DNA from: Candidatus Thorarchaeota archaeon | Lineage (GTDB): Archaea > Asgardarchaeota > Thorarchaeia > Thorarchaeales > Thorarchaeaceae | Length of the DNA stretch: 32,437 nucleotides | NCBI GenBank assembly: GCA_048882385.1 | Contig: JBHLRQ010000028.1 | Location: forward strand, 1 to 32,437 | Direction: 5' to 3' | Shown: one piece after another, positions 20,853-32,126 of the stretch | Layout of the letters: the number at the start of each line of letters is the position of its first letter | Numbering within the stretch: the first letter of the stretch is position 1 | Translations under genes and position numbers: made by a program | The notes under the pieces: generated by a model | Databases searched by the model: none | Seen by the model: only the letters and a program-made list of their open reading frames with translations | Told to the model about the DNA's origin: nothing

Positions 20853-20951
20853 TCCAATATCTTCTAGAAAAGAACAGATATTCTATCATCTAATAGGCAT
20901 TTCCCAAAGCGATTTATGGTGAATTTAGCTTTAGTCTACGGAGGACTTTCC

Positions 20952-22343
20952 ATGTCCGAGCTAGATCTTATTGTCAAGAACGGTAATGTCGTGACTGCAT
21001 CTGATTCTTTCAAGGCTGATGTTGGAGTCAAGGATGGAATAATCACAACTCTTGGAGCTAATCTTAGTCCCGGGACAAATACCAATGTTATAGATGCAAA
21101 AGGGAAGTACATATTCCCTGGTGGTATCGATGTTCATGTTCACTTTCAACTTCCATTCTCTGGAACAGTTTCTGCGGATGATTTTGAAAATGGTACTAAA
21201 GCTGCTGCATGTGGCGGAGTGACAACAGTACTTGATTTTGCCATTCAAACCAAAGGACATCCCATCATGGAGGCTGTGGAAGCACGTAGAGCTGAAGCGG
21301 ATCCAAATGTCTGTGTTGACTACGGGCTGCATGCAGCAATAACTGATTGGAATACACAGACAAAGAAAGAGATCAAGAAAATCATTGACTATGGTATACC
21401 CACATTCAAGATGTTCATGATTTACAAGAATGAAGGATGGATGGCAGATGATGGTATGCTCTTCAGCGCCCTTGAAGAAACCTCCAAACTTGGTGGACAT
21501 ATTGGAGTCCATGCTGAGAGTGTTGATGTTCTAGACCTGTTGATTGAAAGATATGCCAAGGAGAAAGAGAAGTGGGGTGCATATGGTCACACACTCTCAA
21601 GACCCTGTTATACCGAAGAGGAAGCAATTGTTCGTGCAATCAAATGGGCTGAAGTCACTGGCGGGCAATTGTATATAGTTCATATGTCAACAGGGGAGGG
21701 AGCTGATGCTGTCGAAGCTGCAAGAGACCGTGGTGTGAATGTATATGCAGAAACATGCCCACAGTATCTACTACTAGACGACGAGGTCTTCAAGCGAGAA
21801 AATGGACATCTTTATGCTACCTGTCCACAAATCAAGAAACCACATGACAGTGAGCGTCTTTGGAAAGGGCTCGCAAATGGTGAAGTCCAGATTATAGCGA
21901 CTGATACATGCACTTTTGATACTAAACAGAAAGCAGCTTGGAATGGTGATTTCAGGAAGATTCCTTTCGGAATGCCTGGTGTCGAAACCATGGTACCATT
22001 GATGTATACAGAAGGTGTTGGCAAGCGTGGTTTCTCAGTTAATCATCTGGTGTCCCTCGTCAGTACCAATCCAGCCAAGCTATTTGGAATGTATCCTAAG
22101 AAGGGAACTGTTGCAATCGGAAGTGATGCAGACCTAGTTGTATTCGACCCTGAAAAGAAGATTACAATCAAAGCTGAGAATCTTCAATCAAACTGTGATT
22201 GGAATCCATTCGAAGGTTGGGCACTTACTGGTTATCCGGTTGTAACTATATCAAGAGGAAAAATTGTCGCAGAAGATGGCAAGTTTGTAGGAGAGGTTGG
22301 CCATGGGAAATTCCTGGAAAGAAAACCCTTCGGGAAACTCTAA
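20952..22343 (+). CDS. hydA: Dihydropyrimidinase (hydantoinase)
   Basis: PGGIDVHVH, AAACGGVTT, FKMFM, HAE, VHMS, AETCPQYL, IATD, GSDADLV. ATG at 20952 follows GGAGG. Confidence 0.95.
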   Translation: MSELDLIVKNGNVVTASDSFKADVGVKDGIITTLGANLSPGTNTNVIDAKGKYIFPGGIDVHVHFQLPFSGTVSADDFENGTKAAACGGVTTVLDFAIQTKGHPIMEAVEARRAEADPNVCVDYGLHAAITDWNTQTKKEIKKIIDYGIPTFKMFMIYKNEGWMADDGMLFSALEETSKLGGHIGVHAESVDVLDLLIERYAKEKEKWGAYGHTLSRPCYTEEEAIVRAIKWAEVTGGQLYIVHMSTGEGADAVEAARDRGVNVYAETCPQYLLLDDEVFKRENGHLYATCPQIKKPHDSERLWKGLANGEVQIIATDTCTFDTKQKAAWNGDFRKIPFGMPGVETMVPLMYTEGVGKRGFSVNHLVSLVSTNPAKLFGMYPKKGTVAIGSDADLVVFDPEKKITIKAENLQSNCDWNPFEGWALTGYPVVTISRGKIVAEDGKFVGEVGHGKFLERKPFGKL

Positions 22344-22365
22344 CCTCTTAAGATATTACTCATAG

Positions 22366-23217
22366 GTGAATTTCATGCGCCTTCCAACACGTAGAGCGTA
22401 TCATGTGATTTATGATGAGTCACTTGAAGACGCAATCAGATATGCTGCAGCCAATGACTGGACTGGGATTGTCCCAGATTTTGGAGTTCCGCCTTTCTCA
22501 CCTGATAGAATTCAATCAGAAGAGAGAATGAGGTTGAGAGATTTATCTCGTGATCTGTCAATTGAATGGGGTTTCCATGCACCAGGTGACGATGTCAGTC
22601 TTTTCACTACCTACCCTCCTGTTCGTGAAGGAATTATCAAGTATTTCAAACAGATAATCAATTTTGCAAGAGAAGTTAGTGTAAAACCCACAAATGTAGT
22701 GATTCACGCAGGGACACCTCCTTCCTTTCAAAAAGCCGGAGAACAGTATAATGGCTTCATTGAAGATCATCGGGCTGTCTATATGCAAACACTTCGAGAG
22801 AATCTGGCTGAACTTATCGAACATGGCAGGCCTCAGGTTAAGATTGTGCTAGAGAATGTTAATTGGACACCCTTAGTATGCGAAGTATTACAGAATCTCT
22901 TTCCCACTGGACTGAAGATATGTCTAGATATTCCAAAACTCTATGTCCCAGGATTTAGAATAAACGAGTCTGATTGGCAATTCATGCAGCAACATAGGGG
23001 TGCAATCGAAGTGGTCCATATCCATGACTATCACCCGACCTTGAAGGGTCATCAAATAGTTGGCGAAGGAGCCCTTGATTTTGAGAAAGTTCTACGCTTT
23101 CTTGAAGAACTCCAAGCAAAACCTCAGTATGTATTTGAAGTTAGACCTCGTGAAGCTGCTACTCAGAGTCTACACAATATCGCCAATTTAATGGAGATAC
23201 TAAAATTAGACTTATAG
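22366..23217 (+). CDS. Sugar phosphate isomerase/epimerase (AP endonuclease 2) TIM-barrel protein
   Basis: FHAP, VIHAG, LEN, CLD, VHIHD, H..VGEG.LDF, FEV. Confidence 0.85.
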   Translation: MNFMRLPTRRAYHVIYDESLEDAIRYAAANDWTGIVPDFGVPPFSPDRIQSEERMRLRDLSRDLSIEWGFHAPGDDVSLFTTYPPVREGIIKYFKQIINFAREVSVKPTNVVIHAGTPPSFQKAGEQYNGFIEDHRAVYMQTLRENLAELIEHGRPQVKIVLENVNWTPLVCEVLQNLFPTGLKICLDIPKLYVPGFRINESDWQFMQQHRGAIEVVHIHDYHPTLKGHQIVGEGALDFEKVLRFLEELQAKPQYVFEVRPREAATQSLHNIANLMEILKLDL

Positions 23218-23219
23218 AA

Positions 23220-23312
23220 TCAAATCAGTTCTGCCATCAGTAGGTACGCAATAAGAGCTGATACAAAAAGCAGTATTCCAATAAACACCAGTGCGACAAC
23301 ACGCAGTTTCAT
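23220..23312 (-). CDS. 30-aa single-TM microprotein (not in ORF track)
   Basis: MKLRVVALVFIGILLFVSALIAYLLMAELI*. ATG lies 5 nt after the upstream TGA, which is part of a GGTGA SD-like motif. Confidence 0.65.
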   Translation of the reverse strand: MKLRVVALVFIGILLFVSALIAYLLMAELI

Positions 23313-23317
23313 AATTA

Positions 23318-24076
23318 TCACCTTCTCGATTCTCGAAGAGCATCTCGGATCTCGATAAACGCTTGAAGTGTATCCCTGTTGAAGATTCTTGATCTTCCTT
23401 TTCCTTTTGCAGCCAACTCAATTGGAGGTAGTGTTCTACCAAAACCTCGAAGCTCACGTAGAATAAAGTCCCGCAGTTCCTCATGAAACTTCACACCCTC
23501 TATGTTCTCCTCTGCAGCACCACCTCTCATCGCTCTTTGAAGGAGCAGTGCAATAAGCCCCCCTCCTTGTGCAATATTTGATTTAGCTGCAGTTTCTATC
23601 TGAATTGTACCGATTCCGAAAAGCCTGTCAAATATCCCTCTTGTTGTTTTAACGTGAGTTATAGTGCGGAAGGGTACATGTCTCTGTGTAATTTGAATAA
23701 TTCCTTTCTTCACATAAATCTCTGGACTTACATCACCCTCCCAACTTGCCAATGAGTAATCTATACGCTTGACGTAGATATAGGTGTACAAAATCCAACA
23801 AAGCAAGAATCCACCCGCTACTATCCAGTAAGCTTGACTCACAAGTAACCATCCTGCATCGACAATAAGCTGAGTCCAATCAGCGAATAGAAGAACTATA
23901 CTTAGAATTGCTGAATGAGTAAAGAAAACTAACCACAGCAATACCCAAAAGAAGACCAAGACGATGAACACTCGAAACCATTTCTTATAGAGAAAGGCGT
24001 TGTCTGGATGGAATACTCTGCCACTGACAACCTGTTCAATGGGTGGTTTAATGACCCGCCCTTCTCTCTGAGGCAT
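23318..24076 (-). CDS. 2-TM + bPH_2 (YdbS-like) domain protein, paralog 4 (most diverged)
   Basis: IYVKKGII...HVPFRTITHV...GIFDRLFGIGTIQIETA; C-terminal FIEIRDAL. Confidence 0.9.
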   Translation of the reverse strand: MPQREGRVIKPPIEQVVSGRVFHPDNAFLYKKWFRVFIVLVFFWVLLWLVFFTHSAILSIVLLFADWTQLIVDAGWLLVSQAYWIVAGGFLLCWILYTYIYVKRIDYSLASWEGDVSPEIYVKKGIIQITQRHVPFRTITHVKTTRGIFDRLFGIGTIQIETAAKSNIAQGGGLIALLLQRAMRGGAAEENIEGVKFHEELRDFILRELRGFGRTLPPIELAAKGKGRSRIFNRDTLQAFIEIRDALRESRR

Positions 24077-24085
24077 ATAGTTATC

Positions 24086-24799
24086 TCACTCTCTCTCTTT
24101 CTTCAATAAATCACGGATCTCTCGAAGAACCAAGAGAATCTCATCCTCGAGATTGTCCTCGATTCGAATCACAGGTTCCTCTTCAGGATGAACAACTTCA
24201 GTGCCTGTCACGTATGGGTCCTTGAATTTCCTGAGCTCCATGAGTATAAAATCTCGCAACTCCTCATAGAATGTTAGTCCTTCTAGCTTTTCTTCTGAGG
24301 ACTGAAATGAGCTCCCTGACCCGCCAGCGGTTTCAACCTCAATTGAGCCAATCCCAAACAATCTGTCAAATGGTCCTGCAACGCTTTGAATATTTGTTAT
24401 TGTTCTGAAGGGAACATGCTTCCGAGTTATGTTGATGATGCCTTTCTTCACATAGATTTCTGGCATCGTTTTTCCGGATTCAGCAATGACCGAATACTCG
24501 AAGGACCGGATGTAGATTGGATACACAATCAAGTAGGGTATCAATACGCTGAGTACAATGAGCCAGAACCAGAAATTGAAGGGGATCCAAATAACCGCCA
24601 AATATCCAGTAGGCCCGCTAACCATTTCAACAAGCCAGAACACTAGCAGTATTGATGCGACTACAATCACCCATAAAATGAACGATCCGAAGATTCCAAT
24701 GAACCAGTTCTTGTTTCGAAAGTATTTCGATGGTTTGAAGACCTTCCCTCTGGCAATTTCTTCCATCGGTGGTTTGATGACCTTTCCTCTACCTGACAT
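24086..24799 (-). CDS. 2-TM + bPH_2 (YdbS-like) domain protein, paralog 3
   Basis: IYVKKGIINITRKHVPFRTITNI...GPFDRLFGIGSIEVETAG; tail LREIRDLLKK. Confidence 0.92.
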   Translation of the reverse strand: MSGRGKVIKPPMEEIARGKVFKPSKYFRNKNWFIGIFGSFILWVIVVASILLVFWLVEMVSGPTGYLAVIWIPFNFWFWLIVLSVLIPYLIVYPIYIRSFEYSVIAESGKTMPEIYVKKGIINITRKHVPFRTITNIQSVAGPFDRLFGIGSIEVETAGGSGSSFQSSEEKLEGLTFYEELRDFILMELRKFKDPYVTGTEVVHPEEEPVIRIEDNLEDEILLVLREIRDLLKKERE

Positions 24800-24805
24800 G
24801 ATTTT

Positions 24806-25594
24806 CTACCTTCTATTATCATCCATTCTCCTTTCAATTCGACCCAATGCATCTCTTATATCACGAAGTGTTATGAGTATCTCGTCGTCAAGACTGTCAC
24901 TCAGCCGTGGGACTGGTTCATCCTTTGGATGAACAACCTCTGTTCCTACTACATATGGGTCTCTGAAGCGTCTTAGTTCTTGAAGTACGAAGTCCCTCAC
25001 TTCCTCATAGAATGTAATACCTTCCAGTTTCTCTTCAGGACCGCCTTGTCCACTAGGACCACCTGAGTATCCAGCCGTCTGAATTTCTACTGTTCCAATA
25101 CCTAGCAATCTGTCTATTGGACCTGCTCGGGACGCAATGTTCGTTATTGTTCGGAAGGGAACGTGCTTCCTAGTGATATTGACCAGTCCCTTTTTGACAT
25201 AGATTTCTGGCATTGTGGTTCCTTTTTTAGAAATGACACTATACTCTATATTGCGAATGTAAAGTGGAATTCCAATCATGATTGGAAGCCACCAGAAAAT
25301 CATTGAGACTGCATACCAGAAAGTGAGCATGGGAAATACATCATAGACGATTGCGAAGAAAGTAGCCCATGTTGCACCACTTTGATCTGTCATATAGATA
25401 AAAGCTCCAAGTAAGAGGAAACCAATTGCTATAAGCCAGAATATCGTTGCACCAAGAATCGCTCCAATCCACTCTTTATAGTAAAACCTCCGATCTGGTT
25501 TGAAGACTCGACCTGCTGTCACATCTTCCATTGGAGGTTTAATCACTACTCTACGCGTGTCCCGTTCCATTATTATTTCATCTCCCCGTGTCAA
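24806..25594 (-). CDS. 2-TM + bPH_2 (YdbS-like) domain protein, paralog 2
   Basis: Same motifs; GPIDRLLGIGTVEIQTAG; tail LRDIRDAL. Confidence 0.92.
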   Translation of the reverse strand: MTRGDEIIMERDTRRVVIKPPMEDVTAGRVFKPDRRFYYKEWIGAILGATIFWLIAIGFLLLGAFIYMTDQSGATWATFFAIVYDVFPMLTFWYAVSMIFWWLPIMIGIPLYIRNIEYSVISKKGTTMPEIYVKKGLVNITRKHVPFRTITNIASRAGPIDRLLGIGTVEIQTAGYSGGPSGQGGPEEKLEGITFYEEVRDFVLQELRRFRDPYVVGTEVVHPKDEPVPRLSDSLDDEILITLRDIRDALGRIERRMDDNRR

Positions 25595-25787
25595 TTCTGT
25601 TTTCTTCTCTTATTGCGAACCCACCTAGAAAGAAGACAAATCCTAGCCCCTCAAGAAGTCCTCCTAGAAAGTAAAGAATCTCTGGTCCCCCAAGAGTGCC
25701 TGAGATTATTCCGACAATCTCAAAGATCATAATGAGACCACCAAATGACATGAGCACCGTACCTATGCTTCTTTTTCTTTCTGACAA
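25578..25787 (-). CDS. 69-aa Gly-rich 2-TM small membrane protein
   Basis: TTG start 1 nt after the upstream stop; two TM helices; overlaps the next start. Confidence 0.7.
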   Translation of the reverse strand: MSERKRSIGTVLMSFGGLIMIFEIVGIISGTLGGPEILYFLGGLLEGLGFVFFLGGFAIREENRIDTGR

Positions 25788-25788
25788 T

Positions 25789-25887
25789 TCATATCAACCC
25801 CATATACGTAACCAGTAAGAGGACAAAGAGAATGAGGGCCATCACTAAGACAATCACTTTTGCCGCCAGTCGAGCTGCACTCACCAT
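25789..25887 (-). CDS. 32-aa single-TM microprotein (not in ORF track)
   Basis: MVSAARLAAKVIVLVMALILFVLLLVTYMGLI*; GGAGG 8 nt before the ATG. Confidence 0.65.
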   Translation of the reverse strand: MVSAARLAAKVIVLVMALILFVLLLVTYMGLI

Positions 25888-25940
25888 TGTTGTTGCCTCC
25901 TTGAGTATCCATAACTCATTTCATCAAACTTCATTCTCAC
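25881..25940 (-). CDS. 19-aa micro-ORF, or frameshifted 5' part of the 32-aa gene
   Basis: (M)RMKFDEMSYGYSRRQQQW*; GGAGG 5 nt before the GTG; its stop overlaps the next ORF (ATGGTGA). Confidence 0.4.
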   Translation of the reverse strand: MRMKFDEMSYGYSRRQQQW

Positions 25941-25951
25941 TGTTTCCTCCG

Positions 25952-26686
25952 CTATAGCTTTGTCTTCAAAATCTCCCTGATGTCGTGAAGTGCCAGCAGA
26001 ATCTCGTCATCAAGGGTGATGTCACTTCTCTGAACTGGTTCATCTCGAGGTGCAACCACTTCAGTTCCAGTTGTGTAGGGGTCTCTAAAACGCCTGAGCT
26101 CACGAAGGACAAATTGTGTAAGCTCTCTGTAGAACTTGATACCTTCCAGTTTCTCTTCTGGGCCGCTTTGACCCGTCGGTCCACCAGAGTAACCTGCAGT
26201 CTGAATCTCTACAGTTCCAATCCTGAACAACCTATCAAATACGCCAGCTCTGCTTGCGATGTTTGTGATTGTCCTGAATGGGACATGTTTTCGAGTAATA
26301 TTGATGATACCTTTCTTGACATACACCTCTGGCATCGCTGTACCAGACTCAGATAGGACTGCATACTCTATGGACCTCACGTAGACGACTATACCTGCAA
26401 GTGCAGGGATCAACCAGATGATGTTGAATATCCAGATCCACTGACTAATCGTAGGAATCCAAGCAAGGAGTGCAAGTCGCTCACTTGATGCCCAACCTTC
26501 GAAGAACCCGATTAGCCAAGCAGTTCCATACATTACACCTAAAGTCAATAACCATGTTGCTACCGCAAAGCCAATGGCCACGAACCACCACTTGTTCCTC
26601 AATGCACTTGAGGGCCTGAATGTTTTCCCAAAGGACGAATCCTGTGGGGATTCCAAAATACCTCGTACTCCATTTTCAACAACCAA
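25952..26686 (-). CDS. 2-TM + bPH_2 (YdbS-like) domain protein, paralog 1
   Basis: VYVKKGIINITRKHVPFRTITNI...DRLFRIGTVEIQTAG; tail LHDIREIL. Confidence 0.92.
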   Translation of the reverse strand: MVVENGVRGILESPQDSSFGKTFRPSSALRNKWWFVAIGFAVATWLLTLGVMYGTAWLIGFFEGWASSERLALLAWIPTISQWIWIFNIIWLIPALAGIVVYVRSIEYAVLSESGTAMPEVYVKKGIINITRKHVPFRTITNIASRAGVFDRLFRIGTVEIQTAGYSGGPTGQSGPEEKLEGIKFYRELTQFVLRELRRFRDPYTTGTEVVAPRDEPVQRSDITLDDEILLALHDIREILKTKL

Positions 26687-26693
26687 TTATCTA

Positions 26694-27194
26694 TCACGAC
26701 TCCTTTCGTTTGTAACGCGGGATCTCCTTTGCTGCGAGCTTGTTAAAAATCGCAATAGACTGCTGAGTCATTGGGAGCTGTTCCTCATCAGGGCGGAGGG
26801 TAATGTTGTACTCCTCCATGATTGTATCAAGTGTCTCCCTGCACTCTGCTTCCTTTGGACAATCAGGGCAGAGTTTTCCCGCGTAGGAGTCATGTTTGTA
26901 CCATACGATAATACCAAGCTTCATTGTGAATATGATATATACTTGGGCGTTTGCCTGGTAGTCGAATCCGATGAGAATTCCCTTGTAGTCAAGCAAGCTC
27001 TCAACATCAAGTCTGTGACTACTTGCTTGTTGACTTAGCGTCTTAGCAATCTTTCTTCGCGCTCTATTGAGCACTCGCGATACATAGGCGGGGCTCCAAC
27101 CTTTCTTCACGTCTGACTCAGCGATCTCAGTGGTACTAAGTCCTTTCTGGAACTGTTCCCAGACCGCTGATTCATCTGTTGATAGTTGGGGCAT
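26694..27194 (-). CDS. Putative transcription regulator: sigma-region-4/LuxR-like HTH plus C-terminal His/Cys motif
   Basis: LSTDESAVW...GLSTTEIAE...SPAYVSRVLNRARRKI; WYKH...CPDCPKEAEC. Confidence 0.8.
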   Translation of the reverse strand: MPQLSTDESAVWEQFQKGLSTTEIAESDVKKGWSPAYVSRVLNRARRKIAKTLSQQASSHRLDVESLLDYKGILIGFDYQANAQVYIIFTMKLGIIVWYKHDSYAGKLCPDCPKEAECRETLDTIMEEYNITLRPDEEQLPMTQQSIAIFNKLAAKEIPRYKRKES

Positions 27195-27218
27195 TCTTGA
27201 TTCACCGCGTTTTGGTCA

Positions 27219-27325
27219 TACCACATATTTGAACCTTTTGTGGTAATTCCTTATTACATTCTTGGGAAAGTTTATATATAAATTTAGTGAATGTTTACCT
27301 AGATTTGGTAAACAAAATTGTTTAC
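27219..27325. promoter_or_regulatory. Divergent promoter with palindromic TATA box and inverted-repeat operator candidates
   Basis: TACCACA-N13-TGTGGTA (27219-27245); TTTATATATAAA (27271-27282); TGTTTACC-N7-GGTAAACA (27292-27314); GTAAACAA-N2-TTGTTTAC (27308-27325). Confidence 0.75.
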
Positions 27326-27339
27326 TTCAGGTGAAAAAA

Positions 27340-28110
27340 ATGGGAAATAACGGGATTGTTATTCGAACAAGCGGCCTGAACAAGAGATTCGATACTGTTC
27401 ACGCCGTTAGAGATCTGAACCTAGAAGTTCGGTCTGGCAGTAGGTTTGGTTTCCTGGGTCCTAATGGAGCTGGAAAGACGACCACAGTCCGGATTCTATC
27501 TGGACTCTTGAAACAGACAAGTGGCAACGCCGCTGTATGTGGCTATGATGTCAGTACACAGCGTGATGAGATCAAAGCTGTGACTGGTCTGCTTCCTGAG
27601 TCTCCTGGACTGTACTCAAAGCTGTCTGCAGTAGAATTTTTGGAGTTCATAGGAGCATTAAATGGAAGAAATGGTGAGAGTCTGAACAGACGCATTGACA
27701 TAATGCTAGGAATGCTCGGGCTAGAGGGTCGTCAGAACGACCTCTTAGAATCATATTCTTCTGGAATGAAACAGAAGGTGCTTGTAGCATCAACACTGTT
27801 GAGCGAACCCAAACTTGTCTTCCTAGACGAGCCAACTTCACGACTTGATCCAGCAGCAAGTGCTCTGGTGAAAGATCTCATTCTTATACTGGCTGAAGAA
27901 ACTGAAACAAGCTTCTTCATTTGCAGCCACCAGACATCATTCGTTGAAGATGTGTGTGACGTGGTAGGTATCTTGAATGAAGGCGCACTTGTTACTTATG
28001 GTTCTCCCCAGGAGATCATCGAAACAACTGGTGCGAAAGACCTAGAGGATGCATATCTAAAGGTCGTGGGTGGTCACGTGGACAGACAGACTCTGTTGGC
28101 TTGGAGGTAG
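27340..28110 (+). CDS. ABC transporter ATP-binding protein (ABC-2/drug-resistance type)
   Basis: GPNGAGKTT, YSSGMKQK, VFLDEP, CSH. Probable ATG at 27340 after AGGTGA. Confidence 0.95.
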   Translation: MGNNGIVIRTSGLNKRFDTVHAVRDLNLEVRSGSRFGFLGPNGAGKTTTVRILSGLLKQTSGNAAVCGYDVSTQRDEIKAVTGLLPESPGLYSKLSAVEFLEFIGALNGRNGESLNRRIDIMLGMLGLEGRQNDLLESYSSGMKQKVLVASTLLSEPKLVFLDEPTSRLDPAASALVKDLILILAEETETSFFICSHQTSFVEDVCDVVGILNEGALVTYGSPQEIIETTGAKDLEDAYLKVVGGHVDRQTLLAWR

Positions 28111-28115
28111 TGCTG

Positions 28116-29795
28116 ATGGTACGAACCTGGTTAGCGATTGCAAAGGCTGAGTTCCAGGTGTTGTCCTCAGGTTTGAGGGGTAATCGTAGGCTCTACGTGG
28201 GTATACTATATGTACTTGCTCTGGTATGGGCGACAATCATAACCCCTATGATGTACAATGCTATTCTCAGCGCACTATTCCCAATGGAATACTTACGACC
28301 CATGCTAATAGTGATGTTTCCAGGAATAATGCGGACGATTGGACTTTTCCTCTGGCTCCTCCTACTCCTGTTCCCGCTATCTTATGCGCTACAGGAGATC
28401 AAGATTGGGCAGTGGGAGATATTCCTTTCAAACAACGTCAGAACAAAGGACATCATGGCTGGTACATTCATAGGAAAGCTTGGTCTCTACGGACTGATTA
28501 TTGTCTTCCTTGCACCTTTGGTGATTACTCCGTTCATGCTGGCATTCGAAGTCAGCATCATTGGTCAACTGTTGGTCTACGGTGCAATGACAATGCTGGC
28601 AATGGGAAGTATCTGGCTTTCAAACTTCGTCACAAGTGTGGTTCAATCCAGACTTGGTGACTCATCACGAGGGAACGACATCGCAAAGGCACTAGCAATG
28701 GTAGTTGCCATAGTAGTAATCATTCCAATGTACGGACTGATGTTCTTCCTACCAACATTGTCTGAGATGATGGGAATGAACGCGTTCCTACTCCTCCCAT
28801 CAACTTGGTTCTCAGACCTAATCAGCTGGTTGGCAATATCATTCAACGGTATTGGTCTAACTAGCTCTCAGATACTAGGCTTCTCAAGTGTACTACAGGT
28901 TGACATGGTATGGACTTCACTCCTAGCAATAGGATTCACCCTAGGTACAGTTGGTCTTGCATTAGGTACAGCTGACAGGGTTTTCACCATTGAGGCTGGA
29001 GTCCGAACAGAAGTTGTGACAACAGTAGGCAGAGAAAACATCTTCCTCCGAGGAGTCAGGAGAGTCAACTCAGGACCCTTTGGATCACTGATGGTCACCA
29101 ACTTCAAGGACTTCCTACGCAAGGCACAGAATCTGTCAAAGATTGGATACGGGTTGGTCTTGGCAATAATCATGCCAGTCATCATGATGGCTATGGACAT
29201 CGAGTACTTGCAGTTTCGTGAATTGTTCATGATGCTGGTAATCATGATGTCATTGATTGGTGCTATGCCATTCGCTGGAACTGGATTCCTAGAGAGCAAA
29301 GACCAGCTCTGGATTATTCAAGGCGCTCCACATGGAGCATCGAGATATGTCAAGAGCAGGATTGCGTCACAGGCATTTATTGGCATACCACTGGCTGCTA
29401 TACCATCTGCGGTCATCTACTTCATGATTGAGATGACCTTCGCAGAATTACTAATCCTTCTAGGACTCGGATATGTTGCTGTTATCGGTGGAATGCTGAT
29501 GGCCACAGGTGTAACTGCACGCAACCCAAACTATGAGGATACGAAGTCACCCGCCCATCAGGCGAACATGATGACTTCAGTCCTGCTTGCTGAATTCTCA
29601 ATCATGGGTGTTCTTTTTGCAGACATATTTCTCACCATCGGTACTGGCATTGATTTCTTTGGATTCATGGCGAACATCTTTGGTCCAGGAAATATGATGG
29701 TTGGAGTTTCAGTTCTTGGACTAATTGTACAATGGACCATAGCTATCCTCCTAGTCTGGTCTGGAATAAGATACCTCTCTAGGCCAGAAACCTAG
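28116..29795 (+). CDS. ABC exporter permease (two fused ABC-2-like halves, about 12-13 TM)
   Basis: WLAIAKAEF and LMVTNFKDFLR helices open each half; coupled to the ATPase; GGAGGT before ATG 28116. Confidence 0.85.
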   Translation: MVRTWLAIAKAEFQVLSSGLRGNRRLYVGILYVLALVWATIITPMMYNAILSALFPMEYLRPMLIVMFPGIMRTIGLFLWLLLLLFPLSYALQEIKIGQWEIFLSNNVRTKDIMAGTFIGKLGLYGLIIVFLAPLVITPFMLAFEVSIIGQLLVYGAMTMLAMGSIWLSNFVTSVVQSRLGDSSRGNDIAKALAMVVAIVVIIPMYGLMFFLPTLSEMMGMNAFLLLPSTWFSDLISWLAISFNGIGLTSSQILGFSSVLQVDMVWTSLLAIGFTLGTVGLALGTADRVFTIEAGVRTEVVTTVGRENIFLRGVRRVNSGPFGSLMVTNFKDFLRKAQNLSKIGYGLVLAIIMPVIMMAMDIEYLQFRELFMMLVIMMSLIGAMPFAGTGFLESKDQLWIIQGAPHGASRYVKSRIASQAFIGIPLAAIPSAVIYFMIEMTFAELLILLGLGYVAVIGGMLMATGVTARNPNYEDTKSPAHQANMMTSVLLAEFSIMGVLFADIFLTIGTGIDFFGFMANIFGPGNMMVGVSVLGLIVQWTIAILLVWSGIRYLSRPET

Positions 29796-29854
29796 AGAGA
29801 GTGGCAAAGGTGGAGTTCTTTGGTGTTGGTAACTCCACCTTGCCACAACTTTTC
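29775..29854 (+). terminator. Tandem hairpins (terminator, attenuator or stabiliser candidate)
   Basis: CTCTCTAGG/CCTAGAGAG (29775-29799); GTGGCAAAGGTGGAGTT/AACTCCACCTTGCCAC (29801-29846), then ACTTTT. Confidence 0.6.
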
Positions 29855-29871
29855 TCACAGGAGGTAATGAA

Positions 29872-31362
29872 GTGAAACACGTTTGGAATAAGATTGGATT
29901 ATTCATTGTTTTGATAATATTTCTCAGTACTGGTATCCCAAAAACATCGACACAGGACACTGCCATCATCATTATGAAAAATGACTATGGTCTGACTGCC
30001 AACTCTGGAGAAGTGACAAACGTTCCATATGTCTGGCAGGAGCTGAATGGTTTCTGCTATTGGGCAACTCTTTCGATGGCACTACAGAGTATTGGAGCTC
30101 AACTAGATCTGGCAAAAGTATTAGCCGCATCAGGTGTAGGATTCTCAGCTGGCTACATTCGATATGAAGACACCTGGGGTTTTCTCTCTGGATCTTCTTA
30201 TAGACAACAAAGTGCTCTTGCCACTTTTGCAGACTTATATGGTTTTGATGTGGAGTTCTATATGGACCCTGATAGTACTGACTTGGGTTCCCCTTTTTCA
30301 ATGATTATGGATTTGTATAATATCAGCTGGATTGAGATTGATGGATGGGAGGACGCAATTCTGATTCTAAAGAATAGTATAGATGACGGTTTCCCGGCTG
30401 AGGTCTATGTAAATTTACAGAATCTCCCTGCATCTGACTATGATATTATCAGAAACCTAGGTATAACCGAAACCGATCCTACCCACTCGATTTTGGTTAC
30501 TGGTTACAATGAAACCTCGCAAACTGCTCATATCATGGACCCTGCAATTGGTCTATTTGATGACCCAGCATCTTTCCCTGATGATGGAAGTTGGTCTTAC
30601 GATATCAATTTCACATCACTGAATCAGGCTTGGCTTGGACTTTATGGCACCACAATTATCAAACCAGGATCAGGCATACCTGAAGATTTCACTAGTAATC
30701 TGGCAAACTACATCATAGACAGATTGCGTGGTGATAGAAACTCCTATGCACCTGACTCTGAAGAAGTTTTTTTCTGGAATTTTGGATCGAATGCATTCAG
30801 AGCTATGGCGGCTGATCTCACTCCTACAGGTTTTTCCTCATTCATGGATGAATATGATGAGTACAATTTACATACAAAATCGATTATCTTGCAGGATTTA
30901 GGTCTCCAGATTGAAGGAAGCTTGACTCGCCAGTACGAGTCTTATCGGGCCGCACTCGAAGTTCTCTCAAGTGTACTACCAGATCTCGAAGTCCAAGATT
31001 TTGTTACCGAGGCCAGCTCAGCTCTTGTACACTTTGAGTTGTTCTCTGACAATTCAACAGTCAACACTCCTTTCTATACAGGAGGCATAAAGCTAGTGAC
31101 AAAGACTTTCGAGTATATTGCCTATCAATATGAACATGTGCTAGATGGGGATTTATCAGCAGCAGCATCTGCATGTGAAGAAGATTTGGGAGAGATTCGA
31201 ACTCATCTCATTGCAATCGCAAATGCTTGGGATGCTGCAGCAGATGCACTTGAAAGGTCATTACGGGGACCTGAAACATTCCTTGTTATCCTACTTTCTA
31301 CGAGTGTAGTTGGTATGGTGGTATTGGTCATCTTTTTAGTACGACGAAGATTAAGCATGTGA
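29872..31362 (+). CDS. Exported, C-terminally anchored C39-like/BtrH-like papain-fold cysteine peptidase
   Basis: Signal peptide; VPYVWQ...FCYWATLSM (Gln, Cys), THSILVTGY (His), IMDP (Asp); C-terminal TM plus RRR; AGGAGGT SD. Confidence 0.82.
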   Translation: MKHVWNKIGLFIVLIIFLSTGIPKTSTQDTAIIIMKNDYGLTANSGEVTNVPYVWQELNGFCYWATLSMALQSIGAQLDLAKVLAASGVGFSAGYIRYEDTWGFLSGSSYRQQSALATFADLYGFDVEFYMDPDSTDLGSPFSMIMDLYNISWIEIDGWEDAILILKNSIDDGFPAEVYVNLQNLPASDYDIIRNLGITETDPTHSILVTGYNETSQTAHIMDPAIGLFDDPASFPDDGSWSYDINFTSLNQAWLGLYGTTIIKPGSGIPEDFTSNLANYIIDRLRGDRNSYAPDSEEVFFWNFGSNAFRAMAADLTPTGFSSFMDEYDEYNLHTKSIILQDLGLQIEGSLTRQYESYRAALEVLSSVLPDLEVQDFVTEASSALVHFELFSDNSTVNTPFYTGGIKLVTKTFEYIAYQYEHVLDGDLSAAASACEEDLGEIRTHLIAIANAWDAAADALERSLRGPETFLVILLSTSVVGMVVLVIFLVRRRLSM

Positions 31363-31364
31363 TC

Positions 31365-32126
31365 TCATCTCCGGGAGTAGATGACCATATTTCGGTCATC
31401 ACTCCCAACAAAGAGTGACTCTGAATAGTTAGAATAGAATTTGGTTTCTTGAAAACCCGCCTGTGCAAGGTAGCGAACCATAACCTCCGATGTTAGGTTT
31501 AACACCTTCTGTGTTGAAACTCTAGATTTCCACTCACCTTGTTCCTTCATCTGAGATGTCATTACCAGAGTTGACGAGGATGGCGGGTCTGTGTGATCAT
31601 AGAATCTTGAAAATACTACTTCCTCACCATTCTCCATTCTTCCAACCTTTTGTGGAAAGAATCTGAAACCCGATCTATGAATTTCCTCGAAATTAAGTGC
31701 CTGCGCAATGAACAATCCATCATCGGTTAGTGAGTTATAAATTAATGAAATGAGCTTTTCAAGTGTCTTGAAGTTCTCTAAGAGTGCCAGAGAATTACCA
31801 AGACAGAGTATCAAATTATACTGATTTGATACCAGAGACTGGAAGTCTGTCATTTCTCCTAAGATAAATACAGGTGTAACATTGTGTGACGCTGCATTTT
31901 CTTTTGCTCTAGAAATCATTGTTTCACTAATATCAATTCCAACAACATCCGCTCCTTCAAGCGCAAGGGCTACAGAGTGTCGTCCTGTTCCACATGCCAA
32001 ATCTAAGACTCGTTTTCCTTTAGGGGTTCCAAGGCGAGAAACAATGAATGGCATCTCTCTTGAGAGTCGTGCCTCCCAGTCAATTGCATCATCATACGCC
32101 AAGGCAATTATATTGAATGAACTCAT
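31365..32126 (-). CDS. Class I SAM-dependent methyltransferase
   Basis: RVLDLACGTGRH, VGIDIS..MI, ILCLGNSL. Confidence 0.92.
   Translation of the reverse strand: MSSFNIIALAYDDAIDWEARLSREMPFIVSRLGTPKGKRVLDLACGTGRHSVALALEGADVVGIDISETMISRAKENAASHNVTPVFILGEMTDFQSLVSNQYNLILCLGNSLALLENFKTLEKLISLIYNSLTDDGLFIAQALNFEEIHRSGFRFFPQKVGRMENGEEVVFSRFYDHTDPPSSSTLVMTSQMKEQGEWKSRVSTQKVLNLTSEVMVRYLAQAGFQETKFYSNYSESLFVGSDDRNMVIYSRR

Follow-up and report, generated by a model that had tools for sequence, protein, structure and literature searches.

We analysed a stretch of 32,437 nucleotides of Candidatus Thorarchaeota DNA (contig JBHLRQ010000028.1, assembly GCA_048882385.1; the whole stretch is hereafter called the window) in which two groups of genes diverge from a common intergenic region. 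The minus-strand group begins with the gene of a small regulator (REG), followed by four genes encoding membrane proteins with a PH domain (PH1 to PH4) and by several small open reading frames (ORFs); the plus-strand group comprises an ABC ATPase, a permease and a C39-like papain-fold protein (Table 1). An earlier note on this DNA, made from its letters alone, had described the minus-strand genes as a tightly packed run sharing a palindrome-rich promoter region with the exporter genes. The ORF list and the sequence of the window bear this out: all the genes it named are found where it placed them, intergenic gaps from REG through the small ORF TM33 are 11 nt or less, or the genes overlap, and the 145-bp divergent region (27195-27339) contains four inverted repeats. 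Within the run, the stop codon of a 19-codon ORF overlaps the start codon of the following 32-aa ORF (ATGGTGA). On the other strand, the start codon of the ATPase gene is probably the ATG at 27340, since relatives align from approximately residue 20-27 of the long ORF.

Table 1. Features of the locus in window coordinates, with the REG paralogs found on other contigs of the same genome
Feature	Position	Strand	Basis or remark
REG, 166-aa regulator	26694-27194	-	ORF list
PH1, 244 aa, two-transmembrane (2-TM) bPH_2 membrane protein, TTG start	25952-26686	-	ORF, Pfam, hydropathy
19-codon GTG ORF, possible leader ORF (weakly supported)	25881-25940	-	Read by eye
mic32, 32-aa single-TM microprotein	25789-25887	-	ORF, hydropathy
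TM69, 69-aa two-TM small membrane protein	25578-25787	-	ORF, hydropathy
PH2, 254 aa from ATG at 25570, 2-TM bPH_2 protein	24806-25570	-	Pfam; longest ORF from TTG 25594
PH3, 237 aa, 2-TM bPH_2 protein, N-terminal motif KVIKPPMEEIARGKVFKPS near family consensus	24086-24799	-	
PH4, 252 aa, bPH_2 protein, most divergent paralog	23318-24076	-	ORF, Pfam
TM33, single-TM microprotein, 30-33 aa by start codon, directly 3' of PH4	23220-23321	-	
REG-side repeat GTAAT-N5-ATTAC	27243-27257	-	Counted by hand
REG-side repeat TACCACA-N13-TGTGGTA	27219-27245	-	Counted by hand
Central palindromic TATA-like element AAGTTTATATATAAATTT	27268-27285	.	Conserved across Thorarchaeota intergenic regions
Presumed REG operator TGTTTACC-TAGATTT-GGTAAACA	27292-27314	.	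Exact site, ABC side of TATA
Third half-site TTGTTTAC	27318-27325	.	Beside presumed operator, before ATPase start 27340
ABC ATPase, DrrA-like (ABC-2 type), probable ATG 27340	27340-28110	+	Longest ORF from 27262
Permease, 564 aa, 12 predicted TM segments, start overlaps ATPase gene end	28101-29795	+	
C39-like papain-fold protein, 496 aa, N-terminal signal/anchor and C-terminal TM anchor	29872-31362	+	
REG paralogs, same genome	C169:3662-4129(-), C34:21901-22392(+), C207:390-860(+), C62:14470-14976(-)		Loci L126, L127, L158, L159
Amidohydrolase 475 aa, xylose-isomerase-like TIM barrel 283 aa, class I methyltransferase 253 aa	Flanks 20916-23217, 31365-32126		

The part of this locus that is conserved across archaea is a core of two genes, REG and one 2-TM bPH_2 gene, and not the whole 8 kb. 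REG has 687 homologs at E ≤ 0.001, of which the best 120 are all at least 71% identical to it; these best homologs include proteins labelled Thorarchaeota, Bathyarchaeota, Hodarchaeota and Promethearchaeota, and identity between REG of the window and its Bathyarchaeia homologs is 70-78%. We surveyed the surrounding loci with one genome per species (132 relatives, 80 loci kept). A PH gene directly follows REG in 79 of the 80 loci, from Thor-, Hermod- and Hodarchaeota and Bathyarchaeia, with stop and start codons that abut or overlap, and the remaining locus ends at a contig edge. PH copy number varies from one to four. In 61 loci there is a single PH gene and no facing ABC genes, multi-copy PH arrays being confined to Thorarchaeota-like loci, as are the divergent ABC genes (15 of 16 such loci, counted by eye). 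The module proposed in the earlier note stands for its REG and PH core and not as a unit, and the co-occurrence of its two arms, which the note had made a test, holds in 15 of the 16 Thorarchaeota-like loci and not in those 61. A REG profile matched 101 of the 301 genomes of a phylum-wide sample: 64/76 in the family of the window, 15/19 in a second Asgard family and 17/21, as distant matches, in a third, with few or none in the other sampled families. The cassette is also widespread in Bathyarchaeia and, in the genus of the window, is single-copy and at the same place in 22 of 24 genomes. A REG-PH pair with a REG 73% identical to ours was also seen in a record labelled Patescibacteria group bacterium (L057), probably an archaeal contig in a bacterial metagenome-assembled genome. 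PADLOC holds no family for REG, the PH proteins, the permease or the C39-like protein, and matched the ABC ATPase with generic ATPase models only; we found no description of the cassette in the literature searched, which left subscription journals and supplements outside its scope. The module is real, conserved and apparently undescribed, its parts being a membrane domain already known, a Tfx-like regulator family that is new and an ABC exporter of ordinary kind.

The four PH proteins all match the Pfam family bPH_2 (PF03703), as the earlier note had supposed, with E values of 1.3e-10 to 3.5e-9. The alignments score 37-42 bits, where the cut-off is 22, and span positions 12-60 of the 78-position profile. 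Identity of the paralogs to PH1 is 35-52%. Hydropathy predicts two TM segments in PH1 to PH3 and two to three windows in PH4, in each case preceding the PH match; PH4 also differs by an insertion within its PH domain and by a changed C-terminal segment. With PH3 as query, 22 of the 24 other genomes of the genus gave matches, mostly three to four in tandem, so the four-gene array is not a chance assembly. In a FastTree phylogeny of 123 PH proteins each array position forms a clade of its own, and the PH tree roughly tracks taxon groups. An IQ-TREE analysis of a 55-protein subset supports the PH1, PH2 and PH4 clades across the genus, with Shimodaira-Hasegawa-like approximate likelihood ratio test (SH-aLRT) values of 97-100 (100 for PH2), and splits PH3 without a resolved clade; the PH4 clade includes the third gene of three-gene arrays from another Thorarchaeota lineage, and PH1 and PH2 are probably sisters (97 in FastTree, 88 in IQ-TREE). 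The four copies are therefore old, position-specific orthologous groups, which favours non-interchangeable subunits, possibly of a mixed complex. Near their N-terminus nearly all PH orthologs carry the motif [KR]VI[KR]PP-x5-SG[KR]xF[KR]PS, and conservation is higher over their 30 N-terminal residues (2.5-3.1 bits) than over the TM region (1.4-2.0 bits). In one relative (G024, C87:15641-16355) the PH3 ortholog is broken by an internal TGA and TAA, its match falling into two pieces, and a fifth bPH_2 gene lies outside the array in the genome of the window (C65:2014-2250(+), in a 180-aa open frame with a full-length Pfam match).

REG has no Pfam family even at E ≤ 10 and no NCBIfam family, and its best match among PDB sequences has an E value of 0.62. 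An AlphaFold2 (AF2) model built from 50 sequences, with a predicted local distance difference test score (pLDDT) of 89, consists of two short helices, a long helix (residues 35-59), four strands and three helices. Residues 1-55/60 align to sigma-70 region 4 and LuxR/GerE domains (Z 4.0-5.3, root-mean-square deviation 1.2-3.0 Å), and sigma-4 or LuxR/GerE helix-turn-helix (HTH) domains make up nearly all of the 50 best structural matches of residues 1-60. By this model REG looks like a sigma-70-region-4/LuxR-type HTH regulator, in line with the function that the earlier note had given to the first gene. Its HTH also aligns to that of EnfR (8hno) with Z 4.5 and 31% identity over 52 residues, only residues 1-55 being alignable. 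The C-terminal domain, modelled alone (pLDDT 86), resembles no known fold convincingly, reaching a best structural-comparison Z of 3.5 (VIA-align), and Foldseek returned no match at E ≤ 0.001 for this domain or for the whole model, which does not show a new fold. Four residues of the domain, H101, C109, C112 and C118, are invariant in REG and in paralogs only 26-33% identical to it. REG is thus Tfx-like in layout, for which ESM Atlas offers Tfx clusters at 0.80-0.83 as a lead, yet it gives no Pfam match to TFX_C (PF14601), even at E ≤ 10. A longer REG of 212-218 aa occurs in six genus relatives (L026, L031, L033, L034, L038 and L042), with an insertion of about 46 residues in the HTH turn and a second one before the Cys motif; in these loci two exact operators, of the kind described below, flank the central TATA element.

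By the standard archaeal geometry of BRE and TATA elements, the central TATA-like palindrome is presumed to be a shared or bidirectional promoter core. The presumed REG operator lies 9 nt from it and 25 nt before the ATPase start codon, a position that, with normal archaeal spacing, would place it over the start of ABC transcription. The REG promoters of Bathyarchaeia, Hermod- and Hodarchaeota have GTAAA-N2-TTTAC-N9-GTAAA immediately after a TATA box. Allowing no more than one mismatch, we looked for TTTAC-N9-GTAAA in the 160 nt preceding REG: it is present in 52 of the 61 distinct non-Thor sequences (exactly in 44) and in 22 of the 27 Thor-like ones (exactly in 16), compared with 63 of 4400 shuffled sequences. 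In the 3.7-Mb genome of the window, the 23-bp form occurs once, at the site of Table 1, and the 19-bp core twice; no further good site was found that would extend the REG regulon in this genome, and in the window itself a search at one mismatch gives 2 matches where 0.96 would be expected. In another Asgard family, distant REG-like/PH pairs show the same geometry with different half-sites (TTACC-N7-GGTAA and GCTAC-N9-GTAGC), as would be expected of a cognate operator. The REG-side repeat TACCACA-N13-TGTGGTA changes on both arms among relatives (ACCAG/CTGGT, CCTCCA/TGGAGG). It may form an RNA hairpin in what is presumably the REG leader, or serve as another protein site; the hairpin is only one possible reading because relatives with the long REG have a second operator at the corresponding position. 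A scan for bacterial sigma-70 promoters and terminators gave counts equal to those of shuffles, its model being bacterial and not relevant to archaea.

Two lines of evidence tie the regulator to ABC exporters. One is the locus itself, where the ATPase preceded by the operator matches ABC_tran (4e-25) and, as its best NCBIfam match, the drrA subfamily (206 bits, below the 312-bit cut-off). Its permease has 12 hydropathy segments, no match at E ≤ 10 in Pfam or among PDB sequences and none in NCBIfam; ESM Atlas neighbours carrying 12TM_1 / ABC_tran_2 at a score of 0.96 provide a lead only. Of the profile assignments that the earlier note had wanted checked, Pfam confirms bPH_2 and the C39-like protein and leaves the permease without a family. 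The other line comes from the 852 kb of fetched loci, which contain eight exact operator sites away from REG promoters. Five of the eight lie directly upstream of ABC ATPase genes of unrelated operons next to REG-PH, all in Bathyarchaeia, in three arrangements and with at least two permease types: operator, ATPase, permease, REG and PH in one same-strand run (L073 and L084), REG and PH followed by the operator, the ATPase and further genes (L086 and L105), and operator, ATPase, a 507-aa protein, a MacB/FtsX-like permease, REG and PH (L124). Among ABC ATPase ORFs of non-Thor loci, 5 of 15 have the operator, against 137 of 3000 random windows. The link between the regulator/PH arm and the ABC arm that the earlier note had drawn is thereby upheld and goes beyond their being neighbours. 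In one Thorarchaeota locus (L107:5650-6871), approximately 195 nt only of the divergent ABC ATPase and part of the permease are matched, and the exporter may be decaying next to an intact REG and three PH genes.

The association of REG-type regulators with membrane proteins extends to distant relatives. The genome of the window encodes four distant paralogs of REG, each about 155-165 aa long and carrying the H-C-C-C motif, for which Pfam gives only sub-threshold PCYCGC and HTH_23 hints. Each of them directly precedes a membrane-protein gene, with overlapping or abutting codons. Their partners include two 4-TM proteins beginning ...RVCQIPPTL... and single-TM proteins of 417 and 454 aa beginning ...KICPTPPP... 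and ...EACPIPPTP...; one partner has C-terminal TM helices and no N-terminal motif of the xCxIPP type. The motif of the three partners that have it (RVCQIPP, KICPTPPP, EACPIPP) resembles the KVIKPP...GKxFKPS of the PH proteins. At 20 further paralog loci from other Asgard genomes, 16 show a close downstream ORF; all 16 of these are predicted to encode membrane proteins, and [VIA]C[RQP][ILM]PP occurs close to the N-terminus in many of them. Three of three partners of distant REG-like genes from another Asgard family that were sent to Pfam contain bPH_2, and other paralog partners have a beta-helix or no known domains, with varied extracytoplasmic domains. A short cytoplasmic N-terminal peptide common to membrane proteins that are otherwise unrelated would look like a docking motif, and for this reason we favour a model in which these proteins are partners of REG.

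We consider it about an even chance that the locus is a lineage-specific expansion of an archaeal two-gene module in which REG represses the exporter and the PH proteins are its membrane partners. REG would be a small dimer-type repressor of Tfx/EnfR-like layout with a His-Cys3 site, binding TTTAC-N9-GTAAA just downstream of the TATA box and over the expected transcription start. In most lineages this operator would control REG together with the one PH gene whose translation follows immediately; Thorarchaeota would have expanded that gene to two, three or, here, four position-specific paralogs. Since the good operator copy faces the divergent ABC-2-type exporter, REG probably acts as a repressor of the exporter operon and also tunes that of its own gene. 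The PH proteins could be an intramembrane sensor or an anchor that holds or releases REG via the N-terminal peptide, a logic resembling that of an anti-sigma factor or of the membrane inhibitor of LytTR systems, and the four paralogs would form a mixed assembly. A broader proposal is tentative and, in our judgement, rather doubtful: that REG and its paralogs, each with a membrane protein bearing a docking peptide [VIA]-[CI]-x-[IPT]-P-P, make up a system of transmembrane signalling in Asgard and TACK archaea that has not been described, a functional counterpart of extracytoplasmic function (ECF) sigma/anti-sigma pairs built on a Tfx-like repressor, in which the PH array is a hetero-oligomeric sensor gating REG and thereby the ABC exporter.

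Several observations weigh against REG acting as an exporter repressor under the control of PH partners. In non-Thor loci, 10 of the 15 ABC ATPase genes near REG-PH lack the operator, and in four of five complete Bathyarchaeia genomes REG's own site is the only one above control (the fifth has a one-mismatch site at REG). There, PH could be a mere regulated product, an effector and not a sensor. The operator survey, with REG-only sites in four of five genomes and five ABC sites elsewhere, therefore indicates a primarily autoregulatory REG whose regulon ABC exporters joined repeatedly. Even autoregulation is less clear in the window than in its relatives because the second, REG-side site, exact in the subclade with a 218-aa REG, is degenerate here. 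Co-occurrence within the genus carries little weight, as the whole neighbourhood is syntenic in the 20 genus loci fetched, including the amidohydrolase, TIM-barrel and methyltransferase genes. PH1 of this genus, which adjoins REG, lacks the first half (VIKPP) of the N-terminal motif. The structural matches of the REG HTH are modest, their Z of up to 5.3 falling in the range that the structure tool calls common. The H-C-C-C residues, finally, are REG's own candidate sensing site, so REG may need no partner.

The other genes of the locus are accessory. By hydropathy the 69-aa ORF has two TM segments and the 32- and 33-aa ORFs one each, all being plain hydrophobic TM helices (hydrophobic fraction 0.67-0.85), and nothing points to the peptide substrates that the earlier note had suggested. 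The ratio of nonsynonymous to synonymous differences per site (pN/pS) is 0.34 for mic32 (ten distinct orthologs) and 0.28 for TM69 (eight distinct orthologs), compared with 0.55 for TM33, 0.56 for the 19-aa ORF and 0.58 for an out-of-frame control. Only mic32 and TM69 are thus under codon-level constraint, since the other two are no better than the control. mic32 and TM69 are confined to one subclade of the genus and absent from all lineages with one to three PH genes. TM33, kept genus-wide with fifteen distinct orthologs that are all hydrophobic, is supported by its persistent open hydrophobic frame. The 19-aa ORF, open in 10 of the 12 distinct relatives' loci and absent in L026 and L041, both of which lack a segment of about 50 nt, is the weakest item of the locus and of doubtful coding status.

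The C39-like protein matches Peptidase_C39_2 (PF13529; 6e-8, 33.8 bits against a cut-off of 24) and no PDB sequence at E ≤ 1. Q56, C62, H205 and D223 are invariant in 10 orthologs and, following the papain-fold pattern, are probably catalytic. With hydropathy TM segments at 4-22 and 472-490, that is, an N-terminal signal or anchor and a C-terminal TM segment in a separate gene, the protein is probably extracellular. The protease identity proposed earlier gains support from the Pfam family and this Gln/Cys/His/Asp set; its place as a constant member of the system does not, because the gene is missing between the permease and methyltransferase genes in several relatives (L030, L038, L041 and others) and split in one. 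The C39-like protein and the two microproteins are facultative. Among non-Thor loci the C39-like protein was seen once, in a Promethearchaeota record (L121:1094-2668(-)), where its gene and REG diverge from each other and no ABC genes intervene. Synteny across the genus extends to the amidohydrolase, TIM-barrel and methyltransferase genes on the flanks, which lie outside the module. Metatranscriptome contigs 94-96% identical to REG (26742-27221) and to the ATPase and permease (27335-29352) come from two libraries of one marine-sediment study; as assembled contigs only, they give no starts, strands or levels, and the absence of contigs on the PH genes and across the intergenic region is uninformative. 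They are compatible with expression in a relative and prove neither transcription nor operon structure.

In Bacillus, YdbS and YdbT belong to the sigma-W envelope-stress regulon and are thought to be membrane-protective or membrane-organising effectors. A one-component stress regulon of similar output is a strong rival to a REG gated by PH partners, possible though, we think, less likely than not: REG would itself sense a metal, a redox state or an electrophile through its His-Cys3 site, the PH proteins would be the output, and ABC exporters would be recruited occasionally. The invariance of the four residues down to distant paralogs agrees with it, and so do the Bathyarchaeia genomes where the operator marks only the REG-PH promoter, leaving PH as the only regulated product, and the loop between the PH TM helices, which is short, poorly conserved and devoid of an obvious sensor domain. 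However, a four-ligand H-C-C-C site may be purely structural zinc, and a self-sufficient REG leaves unexplained why every REG paralog examined precedes a membrane protein, often with only the N-terminal motif in common.

We find it unlikely that the locus is instead an export and immunity locus of the leaderless-bacteriocin type, with PH proteins as export accessories, micro-ORFs as the exported or immunity peptides and the C39-like enzyme processing or degrading peptides outside the cell. Its inventory of small ORFs, YdbS/T-like PH modules and an ABC transporter fits, as do the two Bathyarchaeia loci with ABC ATPase, permease, REG and PH in one same-strand run and the C39-like gene divergent to REG in L121; DdE and DdF are, moreover, required for export of enterocin DD14 (PMC8657885, in part). 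Nevertheless, the micro-ORFs encode hydrophobic TM helices and not soluble amphipathic peptides, mic32 and TM69 are missing in some members of the genus and in lineages with fewer PH genes, the C39-like gene is not constant, and the 61 loci with REG and a single PH gene have no facing ABC genes at all. Least probable by far, and hardly credible to us, is a mobile defence or toxin-antitoxin-like cassette in which an HTH antitoxin or regulator accompanies membrane-damaging PH proteins and has spread horizontally among sediment archaea. REG sequences of Asgard archaea and Bathyarchaeia share 70-78% identity, more than vertical descent across phyla would usually leave, and a two-gene autoregulated layout is typical of such cassettes; against this, PADLOC has no match for REG, the PH proteins, the permease or the C39-like protein, the genus flanks are stable housekeeping genes where no integrase or repeats were noticed, the cassette is single-copy at one place in 22 of 24 genomes, and the PH tree roughly follows the taxa.

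Little is known of how archaea transfer signals across the membrane without two-component systems. The cassette is testable in this respect, offering a regulator without a Pfam, NCBIfam or PDB relative, a clear candidate operator, an obligate membrane partner and an ABC exporter that shares this operator in several lineages. If REG and PH do interact, they would constitute a simple signalling module, accessible to experiment, in the prokaryotes most closely related to eukaryotes, and bPH_2 proteins, poorly understood even in Bacillus, would gain a defined partner. If PH is an effector only, the operator still defines a compact envelope-stress regulon.

Among known systems, ECF sigma/anti-sigma pairs and LytTR systems combine a regulator with a co-transcribed membrane inhibitor, and REG-PH is likewise a two-gene, apparently autoregulated operon. 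As in the anti-sigma type, the short cytoplasmic N-terminus of PH is the best conserved part outside the PH domain and the C-terminal segment, and the predicted REG HTH is of the sigma-4 type, as in ECF sigma factors. In contrast with these, REG has no sigma-2 domain and comprises one HTH and an unrelated C-domain in 166 aa. To our knowledge, archaea have no sigma factors and use TBP/TFB, so REG cannot be a sigma factor, and the overlap of its operator with the expected transcription start suggests a repressor. In the Bce-type modules of Bacillota, the operator of a dedicated regulator precedes an ABC exporter and the membrane sensor lacks a large extracellular domain, as we propose here; unlike them, our locus has no histidine kinase or response regulator, and exporter types vary, being ABC-2-like here and MacB/FtsX-like in some Bathyarchaeia. 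The C39 domains that process bacteriocins are fused to the N-terminus of ABC exporters on the cytoplasmic side, whereas here the C39-like protein is encoded by a separate gene.

The closest regulators in layout are those of the Tfx family (EnfR/TON_1525, 8HNO, and MTH0916), archaeal proteins of about 140-170 aa which, as far as the sources describe them, share with the REG model an N-terminal sigma-70-region-4-like HTH, a long helix and a C-terminal alpha/beta domain in the same order. The EnfR dimer protects a 36-bp pseudo-palindrome, -44 to +3 of its target gene (PMC10570040, in part). REG differs from this family in the H-C-C-C residues of its C-domain, in its lack of a TFX_C match and in the pairing of its genes with membrane-protein genes.

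For the PH proteins, YdbS/YdbT, DdE/DdF, LnqC/LnqD and Orf7/Orf8 are described as having the same block as PH1 to PH4, two TM helices followed by a cytoplasmic PHb2 domain, and several of them act beside an ABC transporter, just as PH genes adjoin ABC genes here. PHb domains of the DUF304 type are predicted to be intracellular and membrane-anchored, and those of another family form rings (PMC2817789, in part). The YdbS/T-like DdE and DdF that serve enterocin DD14 export are encoded beside an ABC transporter (PMC8657885, in part). This likeness to the leaderless-bacteriocin systems (DdEF-HIJ) stops at the peptide, since our locus has no soluble leaderless bacteriocin gene, its small ORFs being hydrophobic TM peptides and a doubtful 19-aa ORF. 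With two TM helices and one PHb2 domain in YdbS, and six helices and three domains in YdbT, the Bacillus pair has four modules in total (PMC8657885, in part), so the four-paralog array that the earlier note had thought without precedent has one in module number. The arrangement differs, a one-module protein and a fused three-module protein in Bacillus against four separate one-module genes here, and multi-stretch proteins exist among distant PH matches (e.g. P0233, 857 aa, five stretches). Compared with YdbS and YdbT, PH1 to PH4 are archaeal, have long conserved N- and C-terminal extensions and are always preceded by a dedicated regulator.

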